Shown: in pieces, positions 1 through 19,157 of the stretch
How the letters are laid out: the number at the start of each line of letters is the position of its first letter
Position numbering within the stretch: position 1 is the stretch's first letter
Notes under the pieces: generated by a model
Told to the model about the DNA's origin: nothing
Databases searched by the model: none
What the model saw: the letters and a program-made list of their open reading frames with translations, nothing else
Made by a program: the position numbers and the translations under genes
Assembly (NCBI GenBank): GCA_004293385.1
Contig: RDYO01000005.1
Location: forward strand, 1 to 31,793
DNA from: Verrucomicrobiota bacterium
GTDB lineage: Bacteria > Verrucomicrobiota > Verrucomicrobiia > Opitutales > UBA953
Direction: 5' to 3'
Length of the DNA: 31,793 nucleotides

Positions 1-1096
1 GCGCCGGCGGCAGGCGCACGGCCTTGCGTATGTACGCGGGCACGTCGACGTCCTGGCCGTCGATGAACGTCATCGGCGTGCCGCCGAACAGGCCGCGGCG
101 CATCGATTCCTCCGTCGCGAACTCGAAGATCGGCTGCGCGGGGTCCTCGCCTTTGCCGCCCTTCTTCGTCTTGGCGGGGGGCTTGGGCGCGGGCAGCGAA
201 GCGCCGAGCACCGAGACTTCGATGCGGTCGCCGAGCGCGGGCTCGACGCGCGCGCAGAGGATCGTGGAGGTCTCGCCGCCGAAACGCGTGCGGACCGCGG
301 CGACCGCTTCGAAAGCCTCGGTCGAGGTCATCGCGGGGCCGCCGGCGACGTGCACGAAAAGCGAGGCCACCTTGGCGACGGCGCCGGGCGCGTGGGCCAG
401 CGGACATTCGATGGCGGCGCGCGCGGCCTTCATCGCGGCGCCTTCACCTTCGCCCACGCCGAAGGCGAAGAGCGTCGGCGAACCGGGCGTCGAGAGCAGC
501 GAGCGTAAGGAGGAAGGGTCGACGGCGATGAGCGCGCCGGGCGCGAACGCGCTGGCCAGACCGCGCAGGGCTCCGCCCACCCAGGCGTCGGCGGCGGCGA
601 AAGATTCCGACAACGGGGCGTCCGGCGCCACCTGCTGCAGGAGGAGGTCGTTGTGCACCACGACGAGTCCGTGGCACTTCTGGCCGATCTTGACGGCGGC
701 CTCGTTGGCCTGGCGCATCCGGCGTTCGCCTTCATGCGAGAAAGGCATCGTCGCGAAGGCGAGCACGGTGGCGCCCGTCTCGGCCGCGAAGCCGGCGCCG
801 CCGAGGCCGGTCACGAGGACGACGACCGGCACGCCGGTGAAGAGTCGACGCAGGGCCGGCTCCTCCGCTTCGGCGGAAGCCAGGCCGAGGGCGGCCTCGC
901 CGCCGGTACCCATCCCGCGCGTCTGCGCGCGGCCGAGCTGCAGGCTCGTGCCGGGTCCGCCGGCGGCCAAGGCGCGCGCGTCGGTGTCGAGCAGGGCCAC
1001 GGAGACCTCGGCGGGGAGCTGGGCCGAGAGCCGGGTGACCATGGCGCAGCCCGCGCCGCCGAGGCCGACCAGCAGGATGGAGGCGGGCGTGGCCAT
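1..1096 (-). CDS. ftsZ: Cell division protein FtsZ, divergent; stop codon lies beyond the window edge
   Basis: Hand translation from ATG 1096 is open to the window edge: MATPASILLVGLGGAG..DTDARAL..TRGMGTGG..TMPFSHEGERR..VHNDLL..RGLFGGTPMTFIDGQDVDVPAYIRKAVRLP. Last gene of the dcw cluster, 1 nt after the ftsA stop. Signature loop missing (see findings). Confidence 0.92.
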   Translation of the reverse strand, partial: MATPASILLVGLGGAGCAMVTRLSAQLPAEVSVALLDTDARALAAGGPGTSLQLGRAQTRGMGTGGEAALGLASAEAEEPALRRLFTGVPVVVLVTGLGGAGFAAETGATVLAFATMPFSHEGERRMRQANEAAVKIGQKCHGLVVVHNDLLLQQVAPDAPLSESFAAADAWVGGALRGLASAFAPGALIAVDPSSLRSLLSTPGSPTLFAFGVGEGEGAAMKAARAAIECPLAHAPGAVAKVASLFVHVAGGPAMTSTEAFEAVAAVRTRFGGETSTILCARVEPALGDRIEVSVLGASLPAPKPPAKTKKGGKGEDPAQPIFEFATEESMRRGLFGGTPMTFIDGQDVDVPAYIRKAVRLPPA

Positions 1097-1097
1097 C

Positions 1098-2333
1098 TTA
1101 GAGGCGGAAGAGCGCCTTGACCTGGGCGAGGAAGCCGCGGGGACGGACGACGGCCGGCGGGGCGTCGGCCAAGGCCGCGGTCATGAGGCCGACGACGCCC
1201 GCATACTCGGGCTTGCGCAGCGATTCGTTCTCGAAGTCAGGCACGCCGACGCGGGCCGAGACGCCCGTGACGAGCTGGACCGCCTCCGCCGCGTCGGCGA
1301 GGTTCGCCGAACCGCCGGTGAGGATCACGCCCGACGGGATCATGTTCTGGTCGAGGCGCACGGCGTGGCCGGGGAAGATCTGCTCGAGGCGACGGAGCAC
1401 GTCCTTGCGGACGAACTCGATCGTCTCCTGGTAGCGGAGCGAAAGCACCTGGGTGATCGTGCCGCGGTTGAACTGCTGGTCGCCCACGCCCTTGTCGCCG
1501 TCCTTCCAGATGGTCTGGTTGACGTCGGTCTCGCGGTGGAGCGCCGAGCCGAAGCGCTGCTTGAGGTCCTCGGCCGTCTCGCGGCTGATGCGCAGCGCGA
1601 CGCTGAGGTCGTTGGTGAGGTGCTCGCCGCCCACGGGGATCGAACCCGCGCAGAGGATGTGCTCCTTGTAGTAGAGGATCCAGTCGGTCGTGCCGGCGCC
1701 CATGTCGATGACGAGCACCCCGCCCTGCTTGTCCGCGTCGCTCGCCGTCGCGCAGGCGGCGGCGTGGGAGGCGAGGATGAAGTCGCGCACGCGGATGCTG
1801 AGGCCGTTGACCATGCCCACGCGCATGCGCATGTTGCCTTCTTCCATCGTCACGCGCCAGAAGTTCACCTCGAGGCGCTTGCCCGTCATGCCGACGGCGT
1901 TGCCGACCGCGCGGTTGTCCAGCATCGTCGGCTGGCGCATGTAGAGCAGCGTGCTGCGTCCCGCCGGCGGTTCCAGGCGCTTGGCCGAGGCGACCGCATC
2001 GGCCACGTCCTTGGCGGTGACCTTGCCGTCGTGCGCAGGCACGGCGATGAAGCCCTTCACGCGCTCGCCTTCGGCGGCCGGTCCGGACAACGAGAGATAG
2101 ACCTGTTCGACCGCGCGCCCGGAGCCGCGCTCGATGTCGTTCACGACCTCGTGCACGCAATGGGTGAGCTTCTCGAGGTCGGTGACGGTGCCTTTGACGA
2201 CGCCTTCGGTGCGGCGCTCGCTGAAGCTGAGCATGCGGGCCTTGCCGTCGATGACCTGTCCGAGGAGGCTGGCGGTCTTGTGCGTGCCGATGTCGATGAC
2301 GGCGATGAGGGATGGAAGGGGCTTAGGGGTCAT
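1098..2333 (-). CDS. ftsA: Cell division protein FtsA
   Basis: Actin-fold motifs IDIGTHK, IDMGAGTTD, PVGGEHLTNDL, ILTGGSANL; amphipathic C-terminal helix GFLAQVKALFRL; lies between ftsQ and ftsZ. Confidence 0.95.
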   Translation of the reverse strand: MTPKPLPSLIAVIDIGTHKTASLLGQVIDGKARMLSFSERRTEGVVKGTVTDLEKLTHCVHEVVNDIERGSGRAVEQVYLSLSGPAAEGERVKGFIAVPAHDGKVTAKDVADAVASAKRLEPPAGRSTLLYMRQPTMLDNRAVGNAVGMTGKRLEVNFWRVTMEEGNMRMRVGMVNGLSIRVRDFILASHAAACATASDADKQGGVLVIDMGAGTTDWILYYKEHILCAGSIPVGGEHLTNDLSVALRISRETAEDLKQRFGSALHRETDVNQTIWKDGDKGVGDQQFNRGTITQVLSLRYQETIEFVRKDVLRRLEQIFPGHAVRLDQNMIPSGVILTGGSANLADAAEAVQLVTGVSARVGVPDFENESLRKPEYAGVVGLMTAALADAPPAVVRPRGFLAQVKALFRL

Positions 2334-3319
2334 CGGAGAGGGAGGGCGGCGGGGGCGGTGACGGGGACGAGGCGAGGTTCAGGGACGGGCGAAGCGGCGT
2401 TGGTGCGGTTCTGGATGGACATCTTGAGCACGTAGGCCGGCGCGGTGGTGCCGGGCCGGCGCAGGAGTTCGTCGACGTTGATGCGGCCGAGCAGCGCGAG
2501 CTCGTTGCGCCAGTTGGCGGTGGAGAAGACGATCTCGACCAAGGCGGGGCGGTCCATCGGCTGGGTGCCGGGGCGGACGGTGACGCGGAGGTTCGAGCCA
2601 GGCGAATCCTCCTGCGCGCCGAAGCAGTCGCGCAGCGAGAGGGCCGACCACTGCTTGTAGAGCTGCGGATAGCTCGTGCGCACGGTCAGCAGGAAGGGCG
2701 CGGCGACCTCGATGCCGTCGATGAGCAGGTCGTCATCCGTCCCGGTCGAACGGAAATGCTGGATCTCCGGCAGGTTGCGGACCGCCTGTTCGGGGTAACC
2801 GACGCCGGCGAAGGTCTGGCCGTCGGCCGCGACGAGACGCACCTGCATCGCGGCGTTCTTCTCGGCGAGGCTCACGATCTTGGCGACGGCGAGCCGCTCG
2901 CGCAGGGTGATCTCGAGCGTGCCGTCGCCGCGGCGGCGCACGTCGGCCGCGACGACCTGGTTGTCGGCCTCGAGCTCGGCCTTGATGGAACGGACGTCAC
3001 GCGCGAAGCCTTCGGGACCCGCGGCGACGACCTTCTTCACGAAGGCTTCGGAAAGGAAACCGTCCGTCTGGAAGCGCAGCTTGCCGGCGGGAGCGCCGGC
3101 CGCGGACTCGTCGACGGCCCACCAGAGCAGCGTGACGAGCACGCCGAGGAAGAGCGCCGCGGCGACGGTCGGGAGCTTGGAGCGCACGACGCGCTTGCGG
3201 CCGAGTTCGCCGGCGGGCACGCGCTGGACGTCCTGCGGCACGAGGGCGCGCCAGTCACGGTCGGCCTGCCCGCGGAAAGCGTCGCGGCGGCGGCCGAACA
3301 AAGAATCGAAGAGGCCCAT
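2330..3319 (-). CDS. ftsQ: FtsQ/DivIB-like bitopic cell division protein (POTRA-like domain), divergent
   Basis: Basic N-terminus, one TM (VAAALFLGVLVTLLWWAV), POTRA-like segment (IKAELEADNQVVAADVRRRGDGTLEITLRER..A); sits between ddl and ftsA. Confidence 0.75.
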   Translation of the reverse strand: MGLFDSLFGRRRDAFRGQADRDWRALVPQDVQRVPAGELGRKRVVRSKLPTVAAALFLGVLVTLLWWAVDESAAGAPAGKLRFQTDGFLSEAFVKKVVAAGPEGFARDVRSIKAELEADNQVVAADVRRRGDGTLEITLRERLAVAKIVSLAEKNAAMQVRLVAADGQTFAGVGYPEQAVRNLPEIQHFRSTGTDDDLLIDGIEVAAPFLLTVRTSYPQLYKQWSALSLRDCFGAQEDSPGSNLRVTVRPGTQPMDRPALVEIVFSTANWRNELALLGRINVDELLRRPGTTAPAYVLKMSIQNRTNAASPVPEPRLVPVTAPAALPLR

Positions 3320-3321
3320 GG

Positions 3322-4245
3322 TCAGCGTTGGTCGGTGTGCGCGGCGCGCGCGAGGGCCGGGGCGGCCATGCGGCGCACGAGCGCGGGGAAATCGAGCCCG
3401 ACGCAGGAAGCGCTCTTGGGCATCAGGCTGGTGGCGGTCATGCCGGGCATCGTGTTGATCTCGAGGAAATAGAAGCGGCCGTCCGGCTCAAGGAAGACAT
3501 CCGCGCGGGCGAAGTCCCGGCAGCCGCAGGCGGCGAAGAGCCGCGCGGCGGCCTCGCCGATGGCGGCGGTGAGCTCGGCGGGGATCGGCGCGGGGAAGAG
3601 ATACTCCGAGGCGCCCTTGGTGTACTTGGTCTGGTAATCGTAGACCCCGGTGAGCGGGACGATCTCGACGAGGCCCATGGGGCGCCCGTCCAGCAGGCCG
3701 ATCGACATCTCGCGACCACGGAGGCGGCGCTCGGCCATCCACTGGCCGGCGGCGGGGATCTCAGCCAGGGCCTTGGCCACGGCGGCTTCCCCTTCCAGCA
3801 TGTAGAGACCGACGCTGCTGCCCTGGTCGGAGGGCTTGATCACCAGATGTTCGCCTAAGGCGGCCACGAGCGCGGCGGCCGTCGGCTTGGCGGCCCCCGC
3901 GAAGGCGACCTCAGGGATGGCCGGGACGCCGGCGGCGCGCATGGCCTGCTTGGTCGCGACCTTGTCCATGCAGAGCCGGTTGGCGGCCGAAGCGCACCCG
4001 GCGAAGGCGACCCCGCGGGCTTCGAGTTCGGCTTGGGCGCGGCCGTCCTCGCCCCAACCACCGTGCAGGACCGGGAAGACCACGTGCTGGGCGGCATCGA
4101 GCCAATCGGGCAAGGCGTCGGCCGTCAGTTCGACGAGCCGGGCGCCGGGCAGGACTTCGGCCACGGCTTTGCCGGAACGGAGCGAGACCTCGCGTTCGGA
4201 GGAAAGACCTCCGCAGAGGACGATGATCTGCAGGGCGTCGCTCAT
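3322..4245 (-). CDS. ddl: D-alanine--D-alanine ligase
   Basis: VLCGGLSSEREVSL, HGGWGEDG, IKPSDQGSSVG, YDYQTKY, EINTMPGMT..SL.PKSA. Start set at ATG 4245 (ATGA overlap with the murC/B stop). Confidence 0.96.
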   Translation of the reverse strand: MSDALQIIVLCGGLSSEREVSLRSGKAVAEVLPGARLVELTADALPDWLDAAQHVVFPVLHGGWGEDGRAQAELEARGVAFAGCASAANRLCMDKVATKQAMRAAGVPAIPEVAFAGAAKPTAAALVAALGEHLVIKPSDQGSSVGLYMLEGEAAVAKALAEIPAAGQWMAERRLRGREMSIGLLDGRPMGLVEIVPLTGVYDYQTKYTKGASEYLFPAPIPAELTAAIGEAAARLFAACGCRDFARADVFLEPDGRFYFLEINTMPGMTATSLMPKSASCVGLDFPALVRRMAAPALARAAHTDQR

Positions 4246-6518
4246 AGGAGTTCCTTCCATTCGCGGCCGAGCGCGACGATCTCCGGCTGGAGCTCGACGC
4301 CCTGGCGGGCCTTCACCTCGGCGCGGACCGTCCGCATGAGCGCGAGGAAGTCCGCGGCCTTGGCGTCGCCGGCGTTGACGAGGAAGTTGGCGTGGGTCGG
4401 CGAGACCGAGACGGGGCCGACGGCGCGGCCTTTGAGCCCGCTGAGGTCGATGAGCCGGCCGGCCTTGTCGCCTTCGGGATTACGGAAGACGCAACCGGCG
4501 CTCGCCTCGCGCGGCTGCGAGGCGCGGCGGCGCGCGGCCAGTTCGTCCATGCGGCCACGGATGGCGGCAGGATCGTCGGCCGTAGGCGAACGCAGGACGG
4601 CGGAGAGGACGACGGCGCCGTGCAGCTGGGGGCAATCGCGGTAGAGGGCGTCGAAACAGTCGCGACGCGCGGCGCGCACGCGGCCCTGCGGGGTGAGCCA
4701 CTCGATGGATTCGACGACGTCGAAGATCCAGCCGCCCATCGCGCCGGCGTTCATGCGCAAGGAACCGCCGACGGTGCCGGGGATGCCTTCGAGGAATTCG
4801 AAGCCGGTGCGGCCTGCGCGCGCGGCCACGCCGCACAGTTCCTTGAGGCGGGTGCCGCCGCCGACGCGGAAACGGCCTTCGCCGAGATCGGTCACGGCGC
4901 CCCAGCGGGCGGCGTCGAGATGCAGGATCAGGCCGTCGTAACCTTCGTCAGGCACGAGGAGATTGGAACCACGGCCGAGCACGAACCAGCGGAGGTCGAG
5001 TTCGGCCGCCGCCCGCAGGAGCGTGACGAGGTCGTCGACCGATGCGGGTTCGGCATACCAGCGGGCCGCGCCGCCGAGGCCCAGCGTGGTGCGACGGGCG
5101 AGCGGCTCATTGGCGCGGAGGACGCAATCGGCGGACAGGCGGCCGGCGACGAGGTCGGGGAGGTCGGCGGTCAGCACGCCTTCGCCGCGACGACGCAGCA
5201 CTTTGGCGTAAGCCTCGGCGTCGCGCTCGATGTCGCCCGCGCCCACGAAAGCCACCACGGTGTCGGCGCCCTCGGCGAGAGCGTCGAGCAAGGCCGGCAG
5301 CGCGCGGCGGTCCTCGACGAGACGGTGCGCGGAACCGGCGACGATCGCGTCCGAACCGCCGCCTTCGACGGCGGCTTCGCCGGCGGAATAGACCGGCAGC
5401 ACGAGCGCCTGGTCGGCGACGGCGAGCGCGTCGCGGAATTCGCGGGCATACTGGCGCGTGCGGGTGTGGCGATGCGGCTGGAAGACGACGAGCAGCCGTC
5501 CGGCGTGCGTCTCGCGCACCCACTGGAGGAGCGCCGCGATCTCCGTCGGATGGTGGGCGTAGTCGGCGAGCACGCGCAGGCCGGTGCGTTCGAAGAGGAC
5601 GTCCTGCCGGCGGCGGATGCCGCGCCAGCGGGCGAGCGGTTCGGCGACGAGCCCGCCCGTGATGAAGTGCGTGACCGCGAGCGCCAGCGCGGCGTTGGAG
5701 CGATTGAAGGTGCCCGCGACGGGAAGGTTGAACTGACCCGCGGGGAAACGTCCGCCGAGCGCCACGACCGACGAGGAATGACCGCCCTGCACGAGCCGGC
5801 AGGAGTAGTCGCCTTCGTCGCCGACGCGGATGACCGGCACCTTGAGTCCGGCGACGAGGCGCTCGAGGCGCTCGTTGCCGACGGGGATCACGACGGCGGA
5901 ACGGGTACGTTCGAAGAGCGCCCGGAAGACGGCTTCGAGCGCGGCTTCGTCACGGTAATAATCGGGATGATCCCAGTCGAGGTTCACCGCCACGGTGACG
6001 TCGGGCGAGAACGCGCCGATCGTGCCGTCGCTCTCGTCGACCTCCGCGACGACCCAGGGCGAAGCCGCCGAGGCGCGCGCGGGCGGGAACGTCGGGTCGC
6101 GGAAGAGCCCGCCGAGCACGTAGCCGAAGTCGGCGCCCGCGCTGGCGAGCGCGGCGACGAGCAGGCCGCAGGTGGTGGTCTTGCCGTGGCTGCCGCACAC
6201 GGCGACGAAGCGGCGCCCGGCGACGGCTTCGGCGAGGAGTTCGCCGCGACGCAAGGTGCGCACGCCATGGCCTTCGGCGAGCGCGAGCGCGGGGTGGCCG
6301 GGCTTCACCGCGCTGGAACGGCCGACGACGGTCGGACGACGGCCCGCGGCCCAGGGATCGCGCAGGAGCGGGACTTCGCCGTTGGCGAGCTGGAGTTCCA
6401 TCGGGCTGCCGGTCGAGTCATCCCAGCCCGAGACTTCCCAGCCGTCGCCTTTCAGGTAGAGCGCGAGCGGGCCGACGCCCATGCCGCACGCCCCGAGCAT
6501 CCAGGCGGAACCGCTCAT
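4242..6518 (-). CDS. murC/murB: MurC-MurB fusion (UDP-MurNAc:L-Ala ligase / UDP-GlcNAc-enolpyruvate reductase)
   Basis: N-terminal MurC motifs GSHGKTTT, EVDESDG, DHPDYY, DYAHHPTEI, FQPHRHTRT, then in the same frame MurB motifs TTLGLGG, GRGSNLL, GIPGTVGG..MNAGA, SAGCVFRNP, HANF. Start at ATG 6518 (ATGA overlap). Confidence 0.94.
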   Translation of the reverse strand: MSGSAWMLGACGMGVGPLALYLKGDGWEVSGWDDSTGSPMELQLANGEVPLLRDPWAAGRRPTVVGRSSAVKPGHPALALAEGHGVRTLRRGELLAEAVAGRRFVAVCGSHGKTTTCGLLVAALASAGADFGYVLGGLFRDPTFPPARASAASPWVVAEVDESDGTIGAFSPDVTVAVNLDWDHPDYYRDEAALEAVFRALFERTRSAVVIPVGNERLERLVAGLKVPVIRVGDEGDYSCRLVQGGHSSSVVALGGRFPAGQFNLPVAGTFNRSNAALALAVTHFITGGLVAEPLARWRGIRRRQDVLFERTGLRVLADYAHHPTEIAALLQWVRETHAGRLLVVFQPHRHTRTRQYAREFRDALAVADQALVLPVYSAGEAAVEGGGSDAIVAGSAHRLVEDRRALPALLDALAEGADTVVAFVGAGDIERDAEAYAKVLRRRGEGVLTADLPDLVAGRLSADCVLRANEPLARRTTLGLGGAARWYAEPASVDDLVTLLRAAAELDLRWFVLGRGSNLLVPDEGYDGLILHLDAARWGAVTDLGEGRFRVGGGTRLKELCGVAARAGRTGFEFLEGIPGTVGGSLRMNAGAMGGWIFDVVESIEWLTPQGRVRAARRDCFDALYRDCPQLHGAVVLSAVLRSPTADDPAAIRGRMDELAARRRASQPREASAGCVFRNPEGDKAGRLIDLSGLKGRAVGPVSVSPTHANFLVNAGDAKAADFLALMRTVRAEVKARQGVELQPEIVALGREWKELL

Positions 6519-7594
6519 GCGGGGGCGCCGCCGGCGAGGGCGACGGTCTCCGTGGCGAGGGCTTCCCAACGATTGGCCGCGTCGGCCAGCGCGAGCGCGT
6601 CGCGCATGGCGGCGAGCGCCGCGTTGTCATGAAGGCGGCCGAAGACGAGTTCGGCGAGGCGATCCAGCTCCGCCTCGGGCAGGAGGAGCGCGGCGCCGGT
6701 CCGCGCGCTCTCGCGGGCGTTGGCCGTCTGGTGGTCGTCGGCCGCGGACGGCAGCGGGATGAGGACGGCGGGCGTCCGGCAGGTCGCGAGTTCGGCGAGC
6801 GTGCCCGCGCCGGCGCGCGCGACGGCGAGGTCGGCGGCGGAATAGGCCGCCGCCATCTGATGGCAGAACGGGAGGAACTTCACCACGGACTGAGGCGTCC
6901 GGACCTCGTCCTCGCGGCCGCCGGGGCCGGTGAGGCAGAGCACGTGCACGCCGCGCTCGGCGAAATCCGCGAGATGGGCTTCGACCCAGCGGTTGAGCCG
7001 CGCGGCGCCTTGGCTGCCGCCGACGACGAGCACGAGGCGACCGGCGGGCGGCAGGCCGAGCGCGCGACGCGCGGCCTCGCGGGCTTCGGGACGGATCTCG
7101 GCGCGCACGGGATAACCGGAATCATGCTGTCGGTCCGCGGCGACGCCCGGCAGGCGGACGCCCGCGGGCAGATGGACCGACGTCGCGAAACGCGCGATCA
7201 GCCGCACGGCCTTGCCGGGGTGGCGGTTCGCCTCATGCACGAGGACAGGCACGCCGGCGAGGCGGCACGCGATCGCGGGAGCGAGGCTCATGAAGCCGCC
7301 GAAACAGACGAGCACCGACGGACGGAACTCCCGCAGCAGGCGCCACGAAGACCAGACGGCGCCGAGGAGCGCGGGAAAGAAGAGCAGGCGGCCGACGAGG
7401 CCCGGGCCGAAGCCGCGACCCTTGCCCGGCACGAAGCAGAGGCGCGGGTAATGCGCGGTCATGCGCGCGTCGACGGCCTTGCGGCTGACGATCAGCCGGC
7501 ATTCATGACCTTCCTCGGTGAGCCGCTGGGCGAGGGCGATGCCGGGCGCGAGATGGCCGCCGGTACCGCCGCAGGCGAGCAGCACGCGGCTCAT
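6515..7594 (-). CDS. murG: Lipid I N-acetylglucosaminyltransferase MurG
   Basis: GGTGGHLAPG, HEAN..PGKA.R, GGSQGA, ARAGAGT.AEL, HQTANA. Start at ATG 7594 (ATGA overlap with the ftsW stop). Confidence 0.96.
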   Translation of the reverse strand: MSRVLLACGGTGGHLAPGIALAQRLTEEGHECRLIVSRKAVDARMTAHYPRLCFVPGKGRGFGPGLVGRLLFFPALLGAVWSSWRLLREFRPSVLVCFGGFMSLAPAIACRLAGVPVLVHEANRHPGKAVRLIARFATSVHLPAGVRLPGVAADRQHDSGYPVRAEIRPEAREAARRALGLPPAGRLVLVVGGSQGAARLNRWVEAHLADFAERGVHVLCLTGPGGREDEVRTPQSVVKFLPFCHQMAAAYSAADLAVARAGAGTLAELATCRTPAVLIPLPSAADDHQTANARESARTGAALLLPEAELDRLAELVFGRLHDNAALAAMRDALALADAANRWEALATETVALAGGAPA

Positions 7595-8805
7595 GCGCGC
7601 GCCTCCTTCGGCTCGAAGGCCGGCTGGCCCGAGGCGCGGACGCAGTTGAGGATCAGGCCCACCATGCAGGCCATGATCACGAGATTGGTGCCGCCGTAGC
7701 TGATGAACGGGAGCGAGATGCCCTTGGTCGGCAGCAGGCCGGTCACGACGCCCATGTTGATGAGCGCCTGGAAGACGAGGAAGAGCGTGGCGCCGAGGCA
7801 GACGTTGAAACGATAGAGGTCGGCGGTGTGGCGCATCGCGCGGTAGGCGCACCAGAAGATGCCGAGGTACGCCAGCGCCACGAGCGTCGTGGCGGCGAGC
7901 CCGTACTCTTCGCCGATGACGGAGAAGACGAAGTCGGTGTGGGCCTCCGGGAGGTAGGCGCGGCCCTGCAGGCCGTTCGCGGCGCCCTTCCCCGTCAGGC
8001 CGCCGACGCCGAAGGCCACCATGCCTTCGAAGAGCTGATAGGCTTCGTCACCGCGCTTCTCCCAGGGCTCGAGGAACGAGGTGAAGCGACGCAGGCGGTT
8101 GGGCCAGTTGAGGATCAGGACGGTGAGGCCGCCGAGGCCGATCAGGAAGCTCGGGATCACGTAGGCCCAGCGGACGCCGGAGACCAGCATCATCACGCCG
8201 CCCACGGCGCAGCAGAGCAGGATCGTGCCGAGGTCGGGACCGAAGGCGATGCAGGCGGCGATGCCGAGCAGGACGCCGACCGGCTTGACGAAGCCTTCGC
8301 GGCAGTCGATCCAGCCGCGGTCCGTGAAGATGAACGGCTTGCGGTCGCGCAGCCGGTAGAGCGGGAACTTGTTCGGCAAGGTATGCCGCTGCATGACCGC
8401 GAGGAAGTGCGAGAGCACGATGACCAGGGCGAGCTTGCCGAGGTCCGACGCCTGCAGGCGGAAGAAGCCGAAGTCGATCCAGCGCCAGGAGCCGTTGACC
8501 GAGACGCCGACGCCGGGCACGCGCGCGAGGACCATCAGGCCGCACGCGATCCAGAGGATCGGCACGCGCCAGGCGCGGGCCATGTCGAGGTCGAGCCGGA
8601 AGAACGCGAAGCCGGCGATGAACGCGACCGGGACGTAGGCCAGCTGGCGGTAGAAGGCGGCGGTACGGTTGCTCGCCGAGAGCGAGATACCGGCGCTGTA
8701 CTGCACCATCAGGCCGAACAACGCCAAGGTCACCGCGAGCACGAAGATGCCGAGGGCGTACCCACCCAGGGCGCCCGGCTCCTCCTGCTTGACCTTGATG
8801 ACCAT
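7591..8805 (-). CDS. ftsW: SEDS peptidoglycan polymerase FtsW
   Basis: Polytopic; NGSWRWI....RLQASDLGK, PDLGT, PEAHTDFVFSVIGEEYG, LLPTKGISLPFISYGGT. Confidence 0.95.
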   Translation of the reverse strand: MVIKVKQEEPGALGGYALGIFVLAVTLALFGLMVQYSAGISLSASNRTAAFYRQLAYVPVAFIAGFAFFRLDLDMARAWRVPILWIACGLMVLARVPGVGVSVNGSWRWIDFGFFRLQASDLGKLALVIVLSHFLAVMQRHTLPNKFPLYRLRDRKPFIFTDRGWIDCREGFVKPVGVLLGIAACIAFGPDLGTILLCCAVGGVMMLVSGVRWAYVIPSFLIGLGGLTVLILNWPNRLRRFTSFLEPWEKRGDEAYQLFEGMVAFGVGGLTGKGAANGLQGRAYLPEAHTDFVFSVIGEEYGLAATTLVALAYLGIFWCAYRAMRHTADLYRFNVCLGATLFLVFQALINMGVVTGLLPTKGISLPFISYGGTNLVIMACMVGLILNCVRASGQPAFEPKEARA

Positions 8806-9418: not shown

Positions 9419-10693
9419 TCAGGAACGTTGGGAAAGGGCCGTGGCCGCGCGTTCGAAGACGAGGCCGCGCTCGGAGTAGCCGCGGAACTGGTCGAAACTG
9501 GAGAAGCCCGGGCTGAGCAGGATCACGGCGGGACCCTGCGCGTCCTTGGCGGCGCCGACGACGGCGTCCTGCAGCGCCGGATAGCAGCGGGCGGGTTTGC
9601 CGAGCTCGTCGAAGTGGCGCTTCAGTTCCTCGGCGGTCTCGCCGATCAGGCAGGCGGACTCGATGAGCGGGGCGATGCGGCGCACGAAGCGGCCGAGGTC
9701 CCCGCCCTTCCACTTGCCGCCGCCGATCCATCGGACCGGGACGCTGAACTGCGAGAGCGCGGCTTCGACCGCGTGGAAATTGGTGCCCTTGGAGTCGTTC
9801 CAGAACTCGACGCCCTTGTTCTCCGCGACCTTGCGCAGGCGATGCGGCGGGAGACGGAAGAGGCGCGCGGCCTCCTCGAGCTGACGGAGCGGCAGGCCGC
9901 GGGCCTGCCAGTACTTCACGAGCAGGGCCCAGTTCTCGCGCTGCGGCCAGCTGTCGAACACCGAACCGGCCGGCACGGTGTCCGCCACCTCGGCGCGCGT
10001 GGCGACGAGGGTCTCGGCGGGGAGTTCGATGCCGAAGGCGCGCGCGGCGGCGACGACGGATTCGCCGACGACGAGGATGCCGCCCGGCATCATGCGCTCG
10101 ATCAGGCGGTACTTCGCCCGGAAATAGCTCTCGAGCTCGCCGTGACGGTCGAGGTGATCCTCGTCGAAGTTGGACCAGAGCACGGCCTCGGGCGTGAAGT
10201 GACGGAGGTCCTCCGCCTGGAAGGAGCTGACCTCGACGACCGCGAGGAAGGAGCCGTTGGAGACGGTGCGGTGCAGCGAGGTGAGCGGCAGGCCGACGTT
10301 GCCGCAGGCGATGGCGTCGAGGCCGGCGCGCTTGAACGCGAACGAAAGGAACTCGGTGATGGTCGTCTTGCCGTTGGTGCCGGTCACGGCCACGGCCGGG
10401 CCCGTCCAGAGGAGCGCGCCGAAGTCGAGCTCGGTGAGGCAATGCAGGCCCGCGCGGCGGGCGGCGAGCAGCCACGGGTGCGTCTGCGCGAAGCCGGGGC
10501 TGTAGACGAGCAGGTCGTGACGCGCGGCCTCCTCGGGCCCGAACCCGCGGTTCTCGCCGCGTTCGTCGTAGATGACCGAGGCGAAGCCGCCCGCGGCGAG
10601 CGAGTCGGCGACGGAACGTCCGCTCACGCCCTCTCCGAAGATGGCGGCGGGCCGGGCGAGCCGGCGGCGGAGGGACTCGGGGAACTCGCTCAT
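9419..10693 (-). CDS. murD: UDP-MurNAc-L-Ala:D-Glu ligase MurD
   Basis: FGEGVSG, SPGF, VTGTNGKTT, GNVGLP, EVSSFQ, DHLDRHG, NDSKGTN, LLSPGFSSFDQF..YSERG..F. Start at ATG 10693 (ATGA overlap). Confidence 0.95.
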   Translation of the reverse strand: MSEFPESLRRRLARPAAIFGEGVSGRSVADSLAAGGFASVIYDERGENRGFGPEEAARHDLLVYSPGFAQTHPWLLAARRAGLHCLTELDFGALLWTGPAVAVTGTNGKTTITEFLSFAFKRAGLDAIACGNVGLPLTSLHRTVSNGSFLAVVEVSSFQAEDLRHFTPEAVLWSNFDEDHLDRHGELESYFRAKYRLIERMMPGGILVVGESVVAAARAFGIELPAETLVATRAEVADTVPAGSVFDSWPQRENWALLVKYWQARGLPLRQLEEAARLFRLPPHRLRKVAENKGVEFWNDSKGTNFHAVEAALSQFSVPVRWIGGGKWKGGDLGRFVRRIAPLIESACLIGETAEELKRHFDELGKPARCYPALQDAVVGAAKDAQGPAVILLSPGFSSFDQFRGYSERGLVFERAATALSQRS

Positions 10694-11802
10694 CGCAGCT
10701 TGAGGGAGAGCAGCCCGAGCAGGCCGCAGAGGAGCGAGAGGATCCAGAAGCGCGCCACGACCTTGGTCGCGGGCCAGCCCTTCTTCTGGAAGTGGTGATG
10801 GATGGGCGTCATCAGGAACAGCCGCTTGCCGCCCGTGCGCTTGAAGTAGGCGACCTGCAGGATGACCGAGACGGCTTCGACGACGAACACGCCGCCGACG
10901 ATGGCGAGCAGGAAGGGCTGACGCATCAGGCACGCGACGGCGCCGAGCGCGCCGCCGAGGCCGAGCGCGCCGACGTCGCCCATGTAGATCTCCGCCGGCG
11001 CCGCGTTATGCCAGAGGAACACGAGGCTGCCGCCGAAGAGCGCGGCGCAGAAGACCGCGAGCTCGCCGGCGCCCGCGACGTGGCGGATGCGCAGGTAGGA
11101 GGCGAACTCCGCGTGGCCCGCGAGGTAGGCCACCACGCCGAGGATGGCGGTCGTGATCAGCACGCAGCCGATGGCGAGGCCGTCGAGGCCGTCGGTGAGG
11201 TTCACGGCGTTCGAGCAGCCGACGCAGACGAGGATGAAGAACACGCCCGCGACGGCGACGCACGCGGCCAGCGGCCAGCCCAGCGAACCGGCGGACCACA
11301 GCGGCTCCTTGAGGACCGGGAGCCAGATCTCGGCGAGGCCTTCGCGGTAGGACGGATCGAGCAGGACGATCCCGAAGGCGGTGAGCGCCACGAAGCCCTG
11401 GCCCGCGAGCTTGAGGCGGGCGGAGATGCCGTCGGAGCTGCCGTGCCGGACCTTGAGCCAGTCGTCGTAGAGCCCGACGAGGCCCATGCCGACGAGGCAC
11501 CAGAGCGAGGCGAAGACGAGGACGCCCGGACGCGCCCAGAGGAGCACGGCGGGGATGGTCGCGGCGGCGATGATCAGCCCGCCCATGGTCGGCACCTTGC
11601 CGCCTTCCTTGGCGAGTTCGCCCATGAGGGCCTTGGAACGCTCGGGCTGGCGCAGGCGCGCGAGCACGCCGATCAGCCGGCCGGAGACGAGCATGCCCAG
11701 CAGGAGGGCCGTGACGCCGGCGAGGATCGCGCGGACGGTGATGTAGTCGAAGAGGCGGAAAGGCCCCCAGGCGTGGACGAGTTCGCTGAGACGGTAAAGC
11801 AT
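10690..11802 (-). CDS. mraY: Phospho-MurNAc-pentapeptide transferase MraY
   Basis: KVPTMGG, GLYDDWLK, SNAVNLTDGLDGLA, YMGDVGAL.LG, LMTPIHHHFQ. Start at ATG 11802. Confidence 0.96.
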   Translation of the reverse strand: MLYRLSELVHAWGPFRLFDYITVRAILAGVTALLLGMLVSGRLIGVLARLRQPERSKALMGELAKEGGKVPTMGGLIIAAATIPAVLLWARPGVLVFASLWCLVGMGLVGLYDDWLKVRHGSSDGISARLKLAGQGFVALTAFGIVLLDPSYREGLAEIWLPVLKEPLWSAGSLGWPLAACVAVAGVFFILVCVGCSNAVNLTDGLDGLAIGCVLITTAILGVVAYLAGHAEFASYLRIRHVAGAGELAVFCAALFGGSLVFLWHNAAPAEIYMGDVGALGLGGALGAVACLMRQPFLLAIVGGVFVVEAVSVILQVAYFKRTGGKRLFLMTPIHHHFQKKGWPATKVVARFWILSLLCGLLGLLSLKLR

Positions 11803-11803
11803 C

Positions 11804-13177
11804 CTAGTGGAAGGAAAGCGCGGCGCGCAGGTGAGGAGGCAGGCAGCGTTCGAGCGCGAACGAGCGGCTGCCCTTGAGGAAGACATGGCCGCGATGGGCG
11901 GCCACGCGGGCGGCGGCCTCCTCGATCGTGGCGGCGAGGAAACCCGCCTCCGGGTGCGCGACTCCCTGCAGGAACGCCGCCGCATCGCCGCCGAAGACGA
12001 CCACGCGGTCGTCCGGACGGAGAGGGAGCTGCGCGCCGCAGTCGCGGTGGAGTCGCGCGGAGGTGGGGCCGAGCTCGGCCATGCCGCCGAGCACGAAAAG
12101 ACGAGGTTCCGCCGCAGAGCGGCTGCGCCGGTCGAAGGCCTGCGCGGCGTCGAGCAGCGAAGCCGGGCTGGAGTTGTAGCAGTCGACGGTGAAGGTGCGC
12201 GGGCCGTCGACGTGCACGCTGCCGCGTCCGGGCGGGGGCGCCCAGGCCGCGAGCGCGGCGACGAGTTCGGCCGACGTGCGGCCGGCGAGCTTCGCGGCGA
12301 CGACGGCGAGCGCGGCATTACGCGCGAGGCCGTCGGACAAAGGACCGAGCGGGAAGGTCTCGCCGTCGAGCACGAGCGTGCGGCCGCCGTCGGCGGCGAC
12401 GCCGAAGGAAGCCCGGACGAGCCGCGCGGGCGCGACCGCCGGGAGCGGCTCATCGCCGAAGGCCACCGCGACGGAGCGGTCGGCGTAGGCGGCGAAGTCA
12501 GGCCACGAGAGCAAGGACGCGGGCAGCACGGCCTGGCCGCCGGGCGCGAGCGCGCCGACGAGCGAAGCTTTCTCGCGGGCGATGCCGGCGAGCGAACCGA
12601 CGCCTTCGAGATGGACGGGGGCGACCGCCGTGACGATCGCGATGTCGGGGCGGACGACGGCGGCCGAGACGCCGAGTTCGCCCGGCAGGCTCATGCCCGC
12701 CTCGATCACGGCGTAACGGTGGCGGGCGGGGTCGGCGCGCAGCAGCATCAGCGGGACGCCGATGGTGTTGTTGAGGTTGGCCTCGGTCGCGAAGGCTTCG
12801 GCGCCGAGCAAGGCGGCGAGCAGCTCCTTGGTCGAAGTCTTGCCGACGCTGCCGGTGATGCCGATCACGACGCCGGGGAAAGCGGCGCGCGCGCGGGCGG
12901 CGATCCGGCGCAACGCGTCGAGCGGGTCGGCGACCACGAGCTGCGGCAACGGATCGGCGACCGGACGGCCGACCAAGGCGCCGGCGGCGCCGGCCGCGCG
13001 GGCGGCGGCGAGGAAGTCATGGCCGTCGCGGCGCTCCGTGCGCACCGCGACGAACATCTCACCGGCGCGCAGGGCGCGCGTGTCGATGCCGAAGCCCGCG
13101 ACGGTCGCGGCGGGCGCGGCGGTCCAGCGTCCGTCCGTCCAGGCGGCGAGATCCGAGGCGGCGTAGGCGAGGTTCAT
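11804..13177 (-). CDS. murF: MurF ligase
   Basis: IDTR..GEMFVA....RDGHDF, ITGSVGKTSTKE, NLNNTIGVP, EAGM..PGE, DCYNSSP.S, GGMAELG, KGSR. Confidence 0.95.
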   Translation of the reverse strand: MNLAYAASDLAAWTDGRWTAAPAATVAGFGIDTRALRAGEMFVAVRTERRDGHDFLAAARAAGAAGALVGRPVADPLPQLVVADPLDALRRIAARARAAFPGVVIGITGSVGKTSTKELLAALLGAEAFATEANLNNTIGVPLMLLRADPARHRYAVIEAGMSLPGELGVSAAVVRPDIAIVTAVAPVHLEGVGSLAGIAREKASLVGALAPGGQAVLPASLLSWPDFAAYADRSVAVAFGDEPLPAVAPARLVRASFGVAADGGRTLVLDGETFPLGPLSDGLARNAALAVVAAKLAGRTSAELVAALAAWAPPPGRGSVHVDGPRTFTVDCYNSSPASLLDAAQAFDRRSRSAAEPRLFVLGGMAELGPTSARLHRDCGAQLPLRPDDRVVVFGGDAAAFLQGVAHPEAGFLAATIEEAAARVAAHRGHVFLKGSRSFALERCLPPHLRAALSFH

Positions 13178-14694
13178 GCGGAGACGCCCCTCCGGAGCTC
13201 GAGGATCTCGCGCACGACCTGACGGTCGTCGAACGGGACCACGGTGTCGGCGAATTCCTGGGTCGTCTCGTGTCCCTTGCCCGCGATCACGACGCAGTCG
13301 CCCGCCTTCGCGGCGGCGAGGGCCCGCCCGATGGCGTCGCGCCGGTCGGCGACGAATTCGACGGCGGGCAGCGGACCGAGGCCTTCGCGCATGTCGGCGA
13401 AGATACGTTCGAGCGGCTCCTTGCGCGGATTATCCGCGGTGGCCCAAGCGAGGTGGGCGGTCTCGGCGACGGCCCGGGTCATCGCGGGACGCTTGCCACG
13501 GTCGCGGTCGCCGCCGCAGCCGAAGACGCAGAGCACGCGGCCGGGCGTGATGTCACGGAGCATGCGCAAGGCGTTGCGGAGCGCGTCGTCGGTATGCGCG
13601 TAGTCGACGAAGACGGGGAAAGGCTGGCCGGCTTCGACGCGCTCCATGCGGCCGGCCACGCCGGGGAAGGCGGCCAAGGCGGGCGCGAGGGCGAGCGGAT
13701 CGCGCCCGAACGCGGCGGCCATCGCGAGGGCGCAGAGGACGTTGGAGACGTTGTAATCGCCCGGGAGGGTCGACTTGAAGACGGCGGAGCGGCCCGCGTG
13801 GCGGACCGTGAAGACCGCGCCGCCGGTGTCGAGGGCGAGGTCCGTCGCGCGGACGTCGGCGTCCGGCGAGAGGCCGAAGGTGAGCAAGGCCCCCCGGCGG
13901 CGGCAGGCTTCGGCGAGCACGCGGCCGGACGGATCGTCGACGTTGATCACGCAGACGTCCGGCACCGCGCCGTTGCGGCCGTCGAAGAGCATCGTCTTGA
14001 CGTCGAGGTACGCGGCGAGGTCGCCGTGGTAGTCGATGTGGTCGCGGGTGAGGTTCGTGAAAGCCGCCACCTGGAAACGGAAGCCGTGGACGCGTTCCTG
14101 GTGGAGCGCGTGCGAGCTCACCTCGAGGCAGGCGCCGGCGCAGCCCGCGTCGGCCATCTGGCGGAAGAAGGCGGCGAGGTCGGCCGAGTCGGGCGTCGTC
14201 TTATAAGAGGGGATCGAGCGGCGGCCGAGGTGGTAACGGACCGTGCCGACCAGGCCCCACTGCGAACCGTCGTCCTGGAGCAGGTGCCGGAGCAGCGTCG
14301 AGACCGTGGTCTTGCCGTTGGTACCCGTCACGCCGGCGAGCCGCAGGGCCTCTTCGGGGTGGCCGTAGAAACGGCGGGCGATCTCGGCGAGCATCCGGCG
14401 CGGATCGGCGACCTGCGCGGCAGCGACGGCGGGCAGGCCGGCGACGGGCTCGCCGGAGATGATCGCGGCGGCGCCGCGGGCGATCACGTCGTCAAGGAAG
14501 GCATGGCCGTTGGCCCGCAGGCCCGGGAGGGCGAAGAAGAGCGCGCCCGGGAGCACGCGGCGGCTGTCCGTCACGATCGTGGTCACGCGCACCGAGCCAT
14601 CGCCCGTCCGGCCGAGCACGGGCAGCCCCTGGAGCAGCGCGTTGAAGGTCGGACGTTCCATCGAGGCGGGCATCATCGCGGGCGGAGGCGTCAT
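13174..14694 (-). CDS. murE: MurE ligase (DNPR motif suggests meso-DAP specificity)
   Basis: GVTGTNGKTT, LEVSSH, FTNLTRDHIDYH, DYAHTDDAL, FGCGGDRD..KRP, DNPR, AGKGHE. Start 14694 chosen from the ATGA overlap; ATG 14661 is an alternative. Confidence 0.95.
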   Translation of the reverse strand: MTPPPAMMPASMERPTFNALLQGLPVLGRTGDGSVRVTTIVTDSRRVLPGALFFALPGLRANGHAFLDDVIARGAAAIISGEPVAGLPAVAAAQVADPRRMLAEIARRFYGHPEEALRLAGVTGTNGKTTVSTLLRHLLQDDGSQWGLVGTVRYHLGRRSIPSYKTTPDSADLAAFFRQMADAGCAGACLEVSSHALHQERVHGFRFQVAAFTNLTRDHIDYHGDLAAYLDVKTMLFDGRNGAVPDVCVINVDDPSGRVLAEACRRRGALLTFGLSPDADVRATDLALDTGGAVFTVRHAGRSAVFKSTLPGDYNVSNVLCALAMAAAFGRDPLALAPALAAFPGVAGRMERVEAGQPFPVFVDYAHTDDALRNALRMLRDITPGRVLCVFGCGGDRDRGKRPAMTRAVAETAHLAWATADNPRKEPLERIFADMREGLGPLPAVEFVADRRDAIGRALAAAKAGDCVVIAGKGHETTQEFADTVVPFDDRQVVREILELRRGVSA

Positions 14695-16487
14695 CGGCCG
14701 AGGTCGGCGACGGGACCGCGCGGAAGGTTGGAGACGGGCGGGAGGTCGAGCCAGCGGATGCACTTCTCGGCGACCTCGCGGAAGACAGGGGCGGAGACCT
14801 TGCCGCCGTAGCCGACGCCTTCGCCCTGCGGCTCGTCGATGATCACGGTGATGGCCAGCTTCGGGTCGCCGACGGGGAAGAAGCCCGCGAACGAGGCGAC
14901 GTGGTGGGCGGAGGAATAGCGTCCGTTGACGATCTTCTGCGTCGTGCCCGTCTTGCCGGCGACCTCGTAGCCGGGGATGTCGGCGATCGGGGCGGTGCCG
15001 CCCTTGCCGCAGACGGCGCGCAGGAGCGTGGCCATCTGCGCGGCGGTCGCGGGCGTGATGGCGCGGCCGCGCGAACGCGGGGCGTAGTCGAGCACGGTGG
15101 CCTTGGTCTTCGGGTCCTCGACGCGGAGCACGAGCTGCGGCTGCATCAGCAGGCCGTCGGCGGCGACGACCGACATCGCCATGTGCATCTGCATCGCGGT
15201 GACGCTGACCGAGTGGCCCATCGGCACGCGGGAGATGGTGAGCCCGTCCCAGCGCTTGGGCGGGATGAGCAGACCGGGCACCTCGGCGCCGGTGATCAGG
15301 CCCGTCGGGGCTCCGAAGCCGAACGACTTGATGAGGGTGAAGAAACGGTCTTCGCCGAAACGTTCGGCGTACTGCATGCCGACCTGGACGGTGCCGCGGT
15401 TGGAGGATTCGCGGACGATCTGGCGGATGTCGGCGGCGCCGATGGCGTGCGAGTCGGCCGGGAGCGAGACCATGCGGCCGCGGTAAGGCACGCTGGTCGC
15501 GCCGCAGTCGTAGACGGAGTTCGGCGTGATGAGGCGCTCCTCGAGCGCGCCCGCGACGGCGACGATCTTGAAGACCGAACCCGGCTCGTAGACGTCGGAG
15601 ACGGCGCGGTTGCGCTGGCTGTCCATCGGCGCGGCCTGCGGGTCGAAGAAACGGTTGAGGTCGAAGGTGGGCCAGTTCGCGAGGCCGAGGATGCGGCCGG
15701 TGCGCGGCTCGCTGACGATGATGACGGCGCCCTTGGGATTATAACGGGCCGCGGCGGCGGCGAGCGCCTCTTCGCAGGTCTTCTGCACGAGGCTGTTGAT
15801 CGTGAGGACGACGGTGCTGCCGTCGACCGGCGCGACCTCGCGCAGGCGGATGCTGGTGAGCTCGCGGTGGCGGCCGTCGCGTTCGGATTCGATCCAGCCC
15901 TTCTGGCCTTCGAGGAGCGGGTTCATCACGCTCTCGATGCCGGCGGCGGGGACGCCCTCCTTGTTGACGTAGCCGAGGACGTGCGCGGCGAGCTGGCCCT
16001 TGGGGTAGCTGCGGCGGTACTTCAGTTCGGCGCGGAGCGCCTTGATACCGAGCGCCTTGACGCGCTTGACGACGTCCTCGCCGGCCTCGCGCGCGAGGAT
16101 GGACCAGCGGATGCGGTGCTCCTCGCCGGCGGCGTCGGTGCGGACGGTGGTGTCGAAGGCCAGGCGGACCTTGGCGGCGGGCAGGCCGAGAGCGACGGCG
16201 ACCTCGGCCGCGCGCTCGCGGTCGGCCTTGGTGAGCACGTCGGGGTCCACGCCGATGTCCCAGACGTCTTCGGACAGGGCGAGCAGGTTGTCCTGCGCGT
16301 CGCGGATGTCACCGCGACGGCACGGCTTCTCCTGGAGCACGCGACGGGCCTGCAAGGCCTCCGCGCGCAGACGAGGGGCGTCGACCCAATGCAACCAGAC
16401 CAGCCGTACGACCACGGCCAGGAAGCAGGAGGGGACGACCCATGCCAGCAAACGGTAGCGCGTTCGCCTGGCGTGGGGCAGGCTCAT
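14691..16487 (-). CDS. ftsI: Class B penicillin-binding protein FtsI/PBP3
   Basis: N-terminal TM, RRGDI.D, R.YP.G.LAAHVLG, EPGSVFK (SxxK), SSN (SxN), KTGT. Start at ATG 16487 (ATGA overlap). Confidence 0.95.
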   Translation of the reverse strand: MSLPHARRTRYRLLAWVVPSCFLAVVVRLVWLHWVDAPRLRAEALQARRVLQEKPCRRGDIRDAQDNLLALSEDVWDIGVDPDVLTKADRERAAEVAVALGLPAAKVRLAFDTTVRTDAAGEEHRIRWSILAREAGEDVVKRVKALGIKALRAELKYRRSYPKGQLAAHVLGYVNKEGVPAAGIESVMNPLLEGQKGWIESERDGRHRELTSIRLREVAPVDGSTVVLTINSLVQKTCEEALAAAAARYNPKGAVIIVSEPRTGRILGLANWPTFDLNRFFDPQAAPMDSQRNRAVSDVYEPGSVFKIVAVAGALEERLITPNSVYDCGATSVPYRGRMVSLPADSHAIGAADIRQIVRESSNRGTVQVGMQYAERFGEDRFFTLIKSFGFGAPTGLITGAEVPGLLIPPKRWDGLTISRVPMGHSVSVTAMQMHMAMSVVAADGLLMQPQLVLRVEDPKTKATVLDYAPRSRGRAITPATAAQMATLLRAVCGKGGTAPIADIPGYEVAGKTGTTQKIVNGRYSSAHHVASFAGFFPVGDPKLAITVIIDEPQGEGVGYGGKVSAPVFREVAEKCIRWLDLPPVSNLPRGPVADLGR

Positions 16488-16864
16488 CGAGCGCCGGGTC
16501 CTCCCTGCCCTCCCGAACCGAGGAAGGCGATTTCGCGCGCCGTCATCCGGGGGCTCGCGGAGAAAAGGACGGCCGGGGACGCGGCCGAAGGAGAGACTCG
16601 GATCCACACCACCTGCTCGGGGACCGGCGGCTTGAGGGCGTCGCCGATGCGCTGCTGCAGGTAGAGGATGTCGACGGCCTGCTGGACGTGCCGGCGGGCG
16701 ATGTCGTACTCCTTCTTAGAAAGGGAGGTGTCGCGTTCGAGGCGCTGGATGCGGCTGCCGATCGTGTCGGCTTCCACGCGCAGGCGCATGATGTTGATCG
16801 TGCCGACGGCGAAGGCCGCCACGGTGGCGAGGACGCAGGCCCAGGTGAGGAGGCGCGGGCTCAT
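16484..16864 (-). CDS. ftsL: FtsL-like small bitopic coiled-coil protein
   Basis: One N-terminal TM followed by a heptad-like helix; canonical ftsL slot between rsmH and ftsI. The call rests mainly on synteny and topology. Confidence 0.6.
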   Translation of the reverse strand: MSPRLLTWACVLATVAAFAVGTINIMRLRVEADTIGSRIQRLERDTSLSKKEYDIARRHVQQAVDILYLQQRIGDALKPPVPEQVVWIRVSPSAASPAVLFSASPRMTAREIAFLGSGGQGGPGAR

Positions 16865-17778
16865 GCGGCGAGGCGGCGGACGGCGCGGAGGCGCGCCGAG
16901 CGGCTGCGGGGGTTGCGAAGCTGTTCGGCTTCGGAAGGCTGGACGGCCTTGCGGGTGAGGAGGTCGGCCTGCTTGACGCGGTCGTCCTGGTTGCGGGAGT
17001 CGTCGCGGTCGACGGGACGGCCGGCGACCTCGTTCATGTAACGCTTCACCATCCGGTCCTCGAGGGAATGGAAGGAGATGACGGCGAGGACGCCGCCGGC
17101 GTTGAGCTTGCCGAAGGCGAGCGGAAGGGCGTCGGCCAGGGCGCCGAGCTCGTCGTTGACCGCGATGCGGACGCCTTGGAAGGTGCGGGTGGCCGGATGC
17201 GGGCCGCGGGGTCCGGGCGCGGGGGGCGCGGCCTCGGCGACGAGTTCGGCGAAGCTGGCGGTGCGGGCGAGGCGGCCGGTGCCGCGGGCGGCGACGATCG
17301 CGTTGACGACGCGGAACCAGCGGGGCTCCTCGCCGTAGTCGCGGACGGCGCGTTCGAGTTCGGCGCGGTCGCCGCGCTCGAGGAACTCGGCGGCGCTGCG
17401 GCCGACGCGCGTGTCCATGCGCATGTCGTTCGGCGCGTCGTAGCGGAAGGAGAAACCGCGCTCCGGGACATCCAATTGGTATGAGGACACCCCAATGTCC
17501 ATCAGAACACCATCGAATCGGCCCGGAACGCGGTCAAGGTGGCGGAAATTCTCGGAATGGAAACGCAGCCGGCCGACGTGGGCGGCGAGCAGCGCCGCGG
17601 AGCGCTCACCGGCGGCGGGGTCGCGGTCCATCGCGTCGACCGAGCAGCCCGGCGCCCGGGCGAGGATCGCCGCGGTGTGGCCGCCGCCGCCGAAGGTGCA
17701 ATCCAGGTAGGCGCGCCCGTCCTGCGGAGCGAGGAGCGTCAGGCACTCCTCGAGCAGGACTGGGACGTGGCTGGTCAT
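16861..17778 (-). CDS. rsmH: 16S rRNA m4C1402 methyltransferase RsmH (MraW)
   Basis: HVPVLLEE, DCTFGGGGH, DIGVSSYQLD..RGFSF, HPATRTFQGVRIAVNDEL, ISFHSLEDR, NPRSRSARLR. Confidence 0.97.
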   Translation of the reverse strand: MTSHVPVLLEECLTLLAPQDGRAYLDCTFGGGGHTAAILARAPGCSVDAMDRDPAAGERSAALLAAHVGRLRFHSENFRHLDRVPGRFDGVLMDIGVSSYQLDVPERGFSFRYDAPNDMRMDTRVGRSAAEFLERGDRAELERAVRDYGEEPRWFRVVNAIVAARGTGRLARTASFAELVAEAAPPAPGPRGPHPATRTFQGVRIAVNDELGALADALPLAFGKLNAGGVLAVISFHSLEDRMVKRYMNEVAGRPVDRDDSRNQDDRVKQADLLTRKAVQPSEAEQLRNPRSRSARLRAVRRLAA

Positions 17779-18355: not shown

Positions 18356-18662
18356 GATCTAACCATTTTCTTGTTCACAGCGCGGCCAGGGCGTTTAAAT
18401 GACTGAAATCAGTCCTTATTATGCGGAAGTGTTTGAATTTGAACATTTTAGGTTATTTTTATGTCCGCGGAGCGTTTTCGACCCCCTCCATCCCCTGCCC
18501 GGCCGCGCCTGGAAGATCCGCTCCGCCGGCTTCGGGCAGGCTTTGTAATGAGATTAACACTACAGTTCCGGCCGGCGCGAGGCCGCGGCGGAAGGGCGAA
18601 ACTGTTTGCCAACGGCCGCCGGCTGTGCTTTGTCTCCAACCACTCAACCACGTCCCTTGCCC

Positions 18663-19079
18663 ATGAAAACCGCCCTCGCCCTCCTCGCCGCCCTCGTCCT
18701 CGCCGGATGCTCCACCCAGATCGGCGTGGATAACTCCCAGAACCGCGAAGCCTCCTTCTCCAACGTCACCGGCGTGCTGACCACCCGCTACACCTCCGAC
18801 ACCGAGGCCGTCTTCAACGCCGTCAAGCGCACCATCGACGCCATGCCCGGCACCCTCCGTACCGGCGAGACCGACGACCGCGGCGCCAACAAGGAGCTGA
18901 ACAGCGTCATCGTCTACGCCCGCACCATCGGCGACCTCGAGATCAAGATCACCATCGAGAAGGCCGAAGATCCTGAGACCAAGGCCGTCTTCACCCAGGT
19001 CAAGGTCAAGTACGGCGCCTTCGGCAACCTGCCGGAGAGCCAGCAGCTCGTCTCCAAGATCACCTCCAACCTGCGCTAA
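18663..19079 (+). CDS. Lipoprotein, DUF3568-like
   Basis: Signal peptide with lipobox LAG-C. The C-terminal pattern (ARTIGDLEIKITI..TQVKVKYGAFGNLPESQQLVSKI..NL) resembles DUF3568 proteins as I recall them; not searched. Confidence 0.7.
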   Translation: MKTALALLAALVLAGCSTQIGVDNSQNREASFSNVTGVLTTRYTSDTEAVFNAVKRTIDAMPGTLRTGETDDRGANKELNSVIVYARTIGDLEIKITIEKAEDPETKAVFTQVKVKYGAFGNLPESQQLVSKITSNLR

Positions 19080-19104
19080 GCGCCGGGGCGGAACCGCCAA
19101 ACGG

Positions 19105-19144: not shown

Positions 19145-19157
19145 TCACCTTCCTCAC

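Follow-up and report, generated by a model that had tools for sequence, protein, structure and literature searches.

An in-frame 30-bp gap at the T4 loop of ftsZ in a metagenome-assembled Opitutales contig is probably an assembly or library artefact

The stretch of DNA analysed here (the window) is 31,793 bases long and constitutes an entire contig (C46) of a metagenome-assembled genome (MAG) of 1.06 Mb, which consists of 160 contigs and is 71% complete. On its minus strand, it carries ftsZ, ftsA and the remainder of a dcw cluster, as listed in Table 1. The 3′ end of ftsZ is cut off by the end of the contig, one or two codons short of the stop; in relatives, the gene has one further codon and the stop beyond this point. 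The product passes the Pfam gathering scores of PF00091 Tubulin (56.8 bits, cut-off 33) and PF12327 FtsZ_C (37.2 bits, cut-off 27), matches FtsZ chains of the PDB with an E-value of 5e-34, and scores 149.3 bits on TIGR00065, which is under the NCBIfam equivalog cut-off of 295.2. It is the sole tubulin/FtsZ match in the MAG, and neither a second ftsZ nor an intact ftsZ fragment was found elsewhere in that assembly. By its domain content, C-terminal peptide and gene context, the gene is ftsZ, and it belongs to the divergent type found in one freshwater genus of Opitutales (Verrucomicrobiota). With canonical bacterial FtsZ it has in common the GTPase domain, the FtsZ C-terminal domain, the C-terminal peptide and the position at the end of the dcw cluster after ftsQ and ftsA. 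Its closest described relative is FtsZ of Verrucomicrobium spinosum, which has the signature GGGTGSG (PMC1845146), the same as in the congeners of the window genome.

The initial annotation had described the dcw cluster as otherwise complete, and the Pfam matches from ftsA through rsmH, all in open frames, agree with that description. The murC-murB fusion found here has also been described in V. spinosum, where it was shown to be essential (PMC12283558). The ORF at the ftsQ position gave no Pfam match even at E 0.05, and the same holds for a 583-residue ORF upstream of rsmH (18459-20210, minus strand).

Table 1. Coordinates of ftsZ, its motifs and the dcw genes in the window. All frames of the dcw genes between 2330 and 17778 are open.
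Feature	Position	Strand	Basis
ftsZ, 365 codons in the window	2-1096	minus	Pfam, TIGR00065 and PDB chain matches
Conserved C-terminal peptide DVDVPAYIRKAVRL, FtsA-binding type	11-52	minus	Kept in all aligned relatives
T7 loop region, IAVDPSSL in place of NxDxxD	506-529	minus	Alignments of relatives and M. tuberculosis FtsZ
Junction of the 30-bp in-frame gap	795-798	minus	DNA alignments to genomes G022 and G015; contigs from public runs
T1 loop region, GLGGAGCAM; Asn of canonical GGGGxN replaced	1040-1066	minus	Alignments of relatives
ftsA, intact, directly upstream of ftsZ	1098-2333	minus	Pfam FtsA (100.1 bits) and SHS2_FTSA
ftsQ-like ORF, 329 residues	2330-3319	minus	Assigned by position only
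ddl	3322-4260	minus	Pfam
murC-murB fusion, 775-residue ORF	4242-6569	minus	Mur ligase (MurC-type) and MurB domains (Pfam)
murG	6515-7852	minus	Pfam
ftsW	7591-8805	minus	Pfam
murD	9419-10933	minus	Pfam
mraY	within 10690-12453	minus	Pfam
murF	11804-13177	minus	Pfam
murE	13174-14763	minus	Pfam
ftsI	14691-16607	minus	Pfam
rsmH/mraW	16861-17778	minus	Pfam

The translation of ftsZ contains VPVVVLVTGLGGAGFAAETGATVLAFATMPFSHEG. Around the gap it reads VVVLVTGLGG followed directly by AGFAAETGATVLAFATMPF, i.e. with the junction VTGLGG/AGFAAE, and the signature motif [SAG]GGTG[SAT]G (tubulin signature or T4 loop) is absent. The gap is exactly 30 bases long; its placement in the DNA is ambiguous by 2 nt, and the DNA and codon alignment supports the codon junction 797/796 that had been proposed. 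The missing bases of the coding strand encode GTGSGAAATV, corresponding to the T4 loop and about the first turn of helix H4, both of which are present in canonical bacterial FtsZ. When aligned to FtsZ of M. tuberculosis, the window protein has a 10-residue gap directly after GLGG, opposite GTGTGGAPVV; an alignment with 29 relatives places the gap at the same 10 columns, which are filled in every other protein. Past the gap, the frame stays open through the C-terminal peptide, which aligns with DVDVPPFMR at the C-terminus of M. tuberculosis FtsZ. The translation and alignments of the deposited sequence therefore bear out the initial annotation in its observation of an FtsZ that lacks the signature loop through an in-frame gap of about 10 residues. 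The gap is a genuine property of the deposited sequence, and its presence in the organism is doubtful.

The relatives examined comprise 21 congeners and members of other Opitutales families, with 58 genome loci and 94 metagenome contigs. All 131 distinct ftsZ frames among them encode GLGG-G[TM]G[STG]G, with GTGSG after GLGG in 115, GTGTG in 9, GTGGG in 4 and GMGSG in 3. A sequence of the GLGGGTGSGAA type is present in all 21 congeners (62-97% protein identity) and in 8 genomes from other families of the same order. At 144 fetched loci, the segment from S4 to PFxxEG is 37 residues long and includes GGG[TM]G[STG]G; the window, with 27 residues, is the only exception. Over the ftsZ region, the DNA of the nearest genome (G022) matches that of the window at 97.5% identity, without a single difference in the 60 bases on either side of the junction, at which G022 carries 30 extra bases that encode the ten missing residues. 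The initial annotation had held that about 30 extra bp at 797/796 in reads or close relatives would indicate an artefact or a private mutation, and this is exactly what the relatives have.

Apart from the ten missing residues and the last residue, the FtsZ proteins of G022 and the window are the same. Their codons differ by 27 synonymous changes and 1 non-synonymous change, so that strong purifying selection must have acted on ftsZ until essentially the present. Judged from this codon comparison, a long-standing pseudo-FtsZ would not show such a pattern. Likewise, the strict retention of the T4 loop in all 131 distinct relatives means that GTP binding is selected for in the lineage.

Public sequencing data were consulted for populations close to that of the window. 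In 14 DNA runs, which stem from five or more studies, 61-89% of the sampled words of window positions 1-3000 are present, and Logan contigs from four of the runs (X1, X2, X8 and X10, from four studies) were aligned to positions 1-2000. Three of these, X1, X8 and X10, come from independent freshwater or metagenome studies; their contigs are 99-100% identical to the window nearby in ftsA and ftsZ, and all have the same 30 bases. In X8 (freshwater, depth about 32), a single contig of 1973 bases covers positions 603-2000; it differs from the window at 6 bases and by one insertion of 30 bases behind 795, in which the missing residues are encoded. The X1 and X10 contigs (depths of about 120-190) show 0 differences to the window across long parts of ftsA and stop exactly at 796/797, with unaligned ends that enter the same 30 bases on each side. 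None of the four runs yielded a contig that crosses the junction without the 30 bases. The contigs of X2, a microbial mat sample with a depth of 7-8, show 0-2 differences to the window, and this run is probably from the study in which the window itself was sequenced. No X2 contig lies over 766-966, which suggests low coverage at the site in the source study.

The region 766-966, and 796/797 in particular, is an assembly weak point in metagenomes, at which independent assemblies break. Many public FtsZ fragments of the window's species cluster begin downstream of the T4 region.

The gapped form itself was looked for in several collections. A pattern of the junction with free third codon positions has 0 matches in 185,579 species genomes and 0 matches in 241 million metagenome records; the equivalent pattern for the intact form matches 94 metagenome contigs. 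No sequencing run came up for a 60-base query with the junction at its centre, a weak negative as only 2 words were sampled. In a product look-up, there is no other record with the exact FtsZ product of the window; the members examined of its 90% cluster are C-terminal fragments, and the only member that spans the site is intact.

Taken together, these data show a gap that is confined to a single metagenome-assembled contig and does not characterise the lineage. We consider it to be an assembly or library artefact, with a probability of roughly 77%; in the organism, ftsZ almost certainly codes for GLGG-GTGSGAAATV-AGF, as part of a GTP-binding FtsZ of the kind usual in the genus. Of the two explanations offered initially, it is the second, in which 30 bp of GGC-rich sequence were lost through a private mutation or an assembly error, that accords with the intact loop in all relatives and in near-identical populations.

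Small in-frame indel artefacts occur in MAGs at GC-rich sites of low coverage. The gap resembles them in being a private indel at such a site, in the breaks that independent assemblies show there, and in finding no support in other data; it differs in that no long direct repeat flanks it. We propose that the site, as a very GC-rich, self-complementary stretch that is poorly assembled in metagenomes, would have had very low coverage in the probable source study. The 30 bases may then have been skipped in a few aberrant molecules, or in just one, through a polymerase jump or template switch during library amplification; a faulty assembly path or gap closure would be an alternative route to the same artefact. 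In either case, the aberrant molecule or faulty path would have been the only continuous route through ftsZ. We infer this mechanism as the most economical account; what the data show is that the gap is absent from all other sequences examined, near-identical populations included.

Several properties of the contig bear on how such an artefact might arise. The flanks of the gap have 2 bases of microhomology, and the shared words are only about 9-10 bases long, so that a de Bruijn assembler cannot create the junction from intact sequence. The gap was therefore probably present in one or more real reads or molecules, a point against an artefact. The gap is the largest indel over 31.3 kb of alignment to G015 and over 18.8 kb to G022; no other indel exceeds 13 bases, and these smaller ones go in both directions, several of them seemingly in intergenic sequence. 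With no excess of deletions across the 31-kb contig, the assembly is not visibly error-ridden in general. A gap in frame by chance has a prior of 1 in 3, which we counted against an artefact.

Three specific routes were tried and rejected. Slippage between direct repeats does not fit a 2-base microhomology without a long flanking repeat, the nearby repeats being imperfect. The insert lies within a predicted DNA stem-loop of -28.2 kcal/mol; hairpin excision was set aside since shuffled sequence folds equally well (z -0.28) and the stem-loop is thus not distinctive. For an overlap mis-join of two contig ends, the overlaps that we worked out by hand would yield gaps of 15 or 33 bases and not 30.

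The need for real molecules at the junction, with no long repeat to account for an assembler slip, also suits a 30-bp deletion allele that is real, recent and damaging, carried by part of the cells in the sampled population and captured through low coverage. Such an allele would amount to loss of function in an essential gene, without adaptive meaning, and might be transient, for instance if carried by a polyploid cell or by the DNA of dead cells. The gap being in frame, its flanks exactly matching the local haplotype of G022 and the contig having no general deletion bias are all compatible with this explanation. However, near-identical populations are intact in three other studies, the junction has no matches in large collections, and even at a depth of 7x a lethal allele would hardly be expected to predominate. 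In the cultured verrucomicrobium V. spinosum, TraDIS showed almost all of the dcw cluster, ftsZ included, to be essential (PMC12283558), and the MAG has no second ftsZ to compensate. We therefore regard a damaging allele, the main rival to an artefact, as unlikely. With the T4 loop and the start of H4 missing from a protein that is essential in V. spinosum, a viable strain with the gapped protein as its only FtsZ is likewise unlikely. That a strain of this small-genome genus divides in this way, either with FtsZ in a GTP-independent role or by FtsZ-independent division in an intact dcw cluster, has in our estimate hardly any probability.

Sister phyla of Verrucomicrobiota have lost FtsZ altogether, and the initial annotation had raised, as its first alternative, a pseudo-FtsZ as a feature of the lineage. 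In its strain-level form, this would be a functional, nucleotide-blind FtsZ fixed in the strain, serving as a scaffold or regulator without GTP binding, and a step towards FtsZ-independent division as in other PVC phyla. A gap that was real and fixed would make this a rare natural instance of an FtsZ unable to bind GTP, in a phylum whose sister phyla did away with the protein. The open frame up to the FtsA-binding peptide, the otherwise complete dcw cluster and the degenerate T7 and T1 motifs already present in FtsZ of the genus (see below) can be cited for it. Structural models point both ways. AlphaFold models of the gapped protein and of an intact congener protein were built from the same alignment, and the gapped protein is still predicted to fold, a result that cannot decide function. 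On the other hand, its model loses most of helix H4, which is predicted at residues 101-116 (16 residues) in the intact congener and at 102-106 (5 residues) in the window protein, and confidence falls, the number of residues with a pLDDT of at least 90 going from 181 in the intact congener model to 111. Profile scores are also lowered by about 37-38 bits relative to the intact congener, from 186.8 to 149.3 on TIGR00065 and from 94.7 to 56.8 on Pfam Tubulin.

Point mutants in the T4 or tubulin signature loop of E. coli FtsZ, e.g. ftsZ84 (G105S), affect the same phosphate-binding loop as the gap, and GTP binding and hydrolysis are expected to be lost. These mutants carry single substitutions and their FtsZ remains conditionally functional, whereas the window copy is without the whole loop and part of the helix and should be far more severely affected. 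Against a nucleotide-blind FtsZ there is, moreover, the strict retention of the loop in 131 of 131 distinct relatives, the ratio of 1 non-synonymous to 27 synonymous differences, which indicates no shift in constraint, and the failure to find the gapped form anywhere else in runs, genomes, metagenomes or the product look-up. This reading is already largely refuted, and we assign it a very low probability; as a lineage feature, the pseudo-FtsZ is not supported, given that the loop is intact in all congeners and near-identical populations and that there is no relaxed selection. An artefact being the favoured explanation, the ftsZ annotation of this low-quality MAG is suspect, and, more generally, an in-frame indel in a GC-rich conserved motif of a single MAG should not be taken for biology.

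The real lineage-level peculiarity of the window FtsZ is the genus-wide degeneration of T7 and T1. In T1, GGAGC[SA]M is found in about 100 distinct congener sequences, and the Asn is retained in other Opitutales families. In T7, the congeners (relatives L003-L023 and L032-L084) have [AP][VA]DP[AS][AS]L, with T4 strictly kept. Other Opitutales families have N[ILV]DFxTL at T7, and the second T7 Asp has therefore already been replaced order-wide. On TIGR00065, an intact congener fails the cut-off at 186.8 bits and a member of another Opitutales family passes it at 297.1. The shortfall of the window protein mostly reflects lineage divergence, the gap costing about 37 bits. The whole genus accordingly differs from canonical FtsZ in T1 (GGAGC[SA]M), in T7 ([AP][VA]DPxxL) and in its scores below the TIGR00065 cut-off; judged from the alignments, the degenerate T1 and T7 are real lineage features, independent of the gap.

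Elsewhere in the window, a short GC-rich stretch at about 29480-29770 resembles a dispersed repeat: in G015 and G022, dozens of sequences of 35-130 bases, spread over many contigs, match parts of it at 75-97% identity. An Rfam scan of the window, this stretch included, gave no matches at the gathering threshold. Among the relatives, the near-identical ftsZ loci L035, L041, L055 and L087 come from MAGs that are labelled Phycisphaerales, Klebsiella, Akkermansia muciniphila or Gammaproteobacteria, and which are probably mislabelled or contaminated bins.
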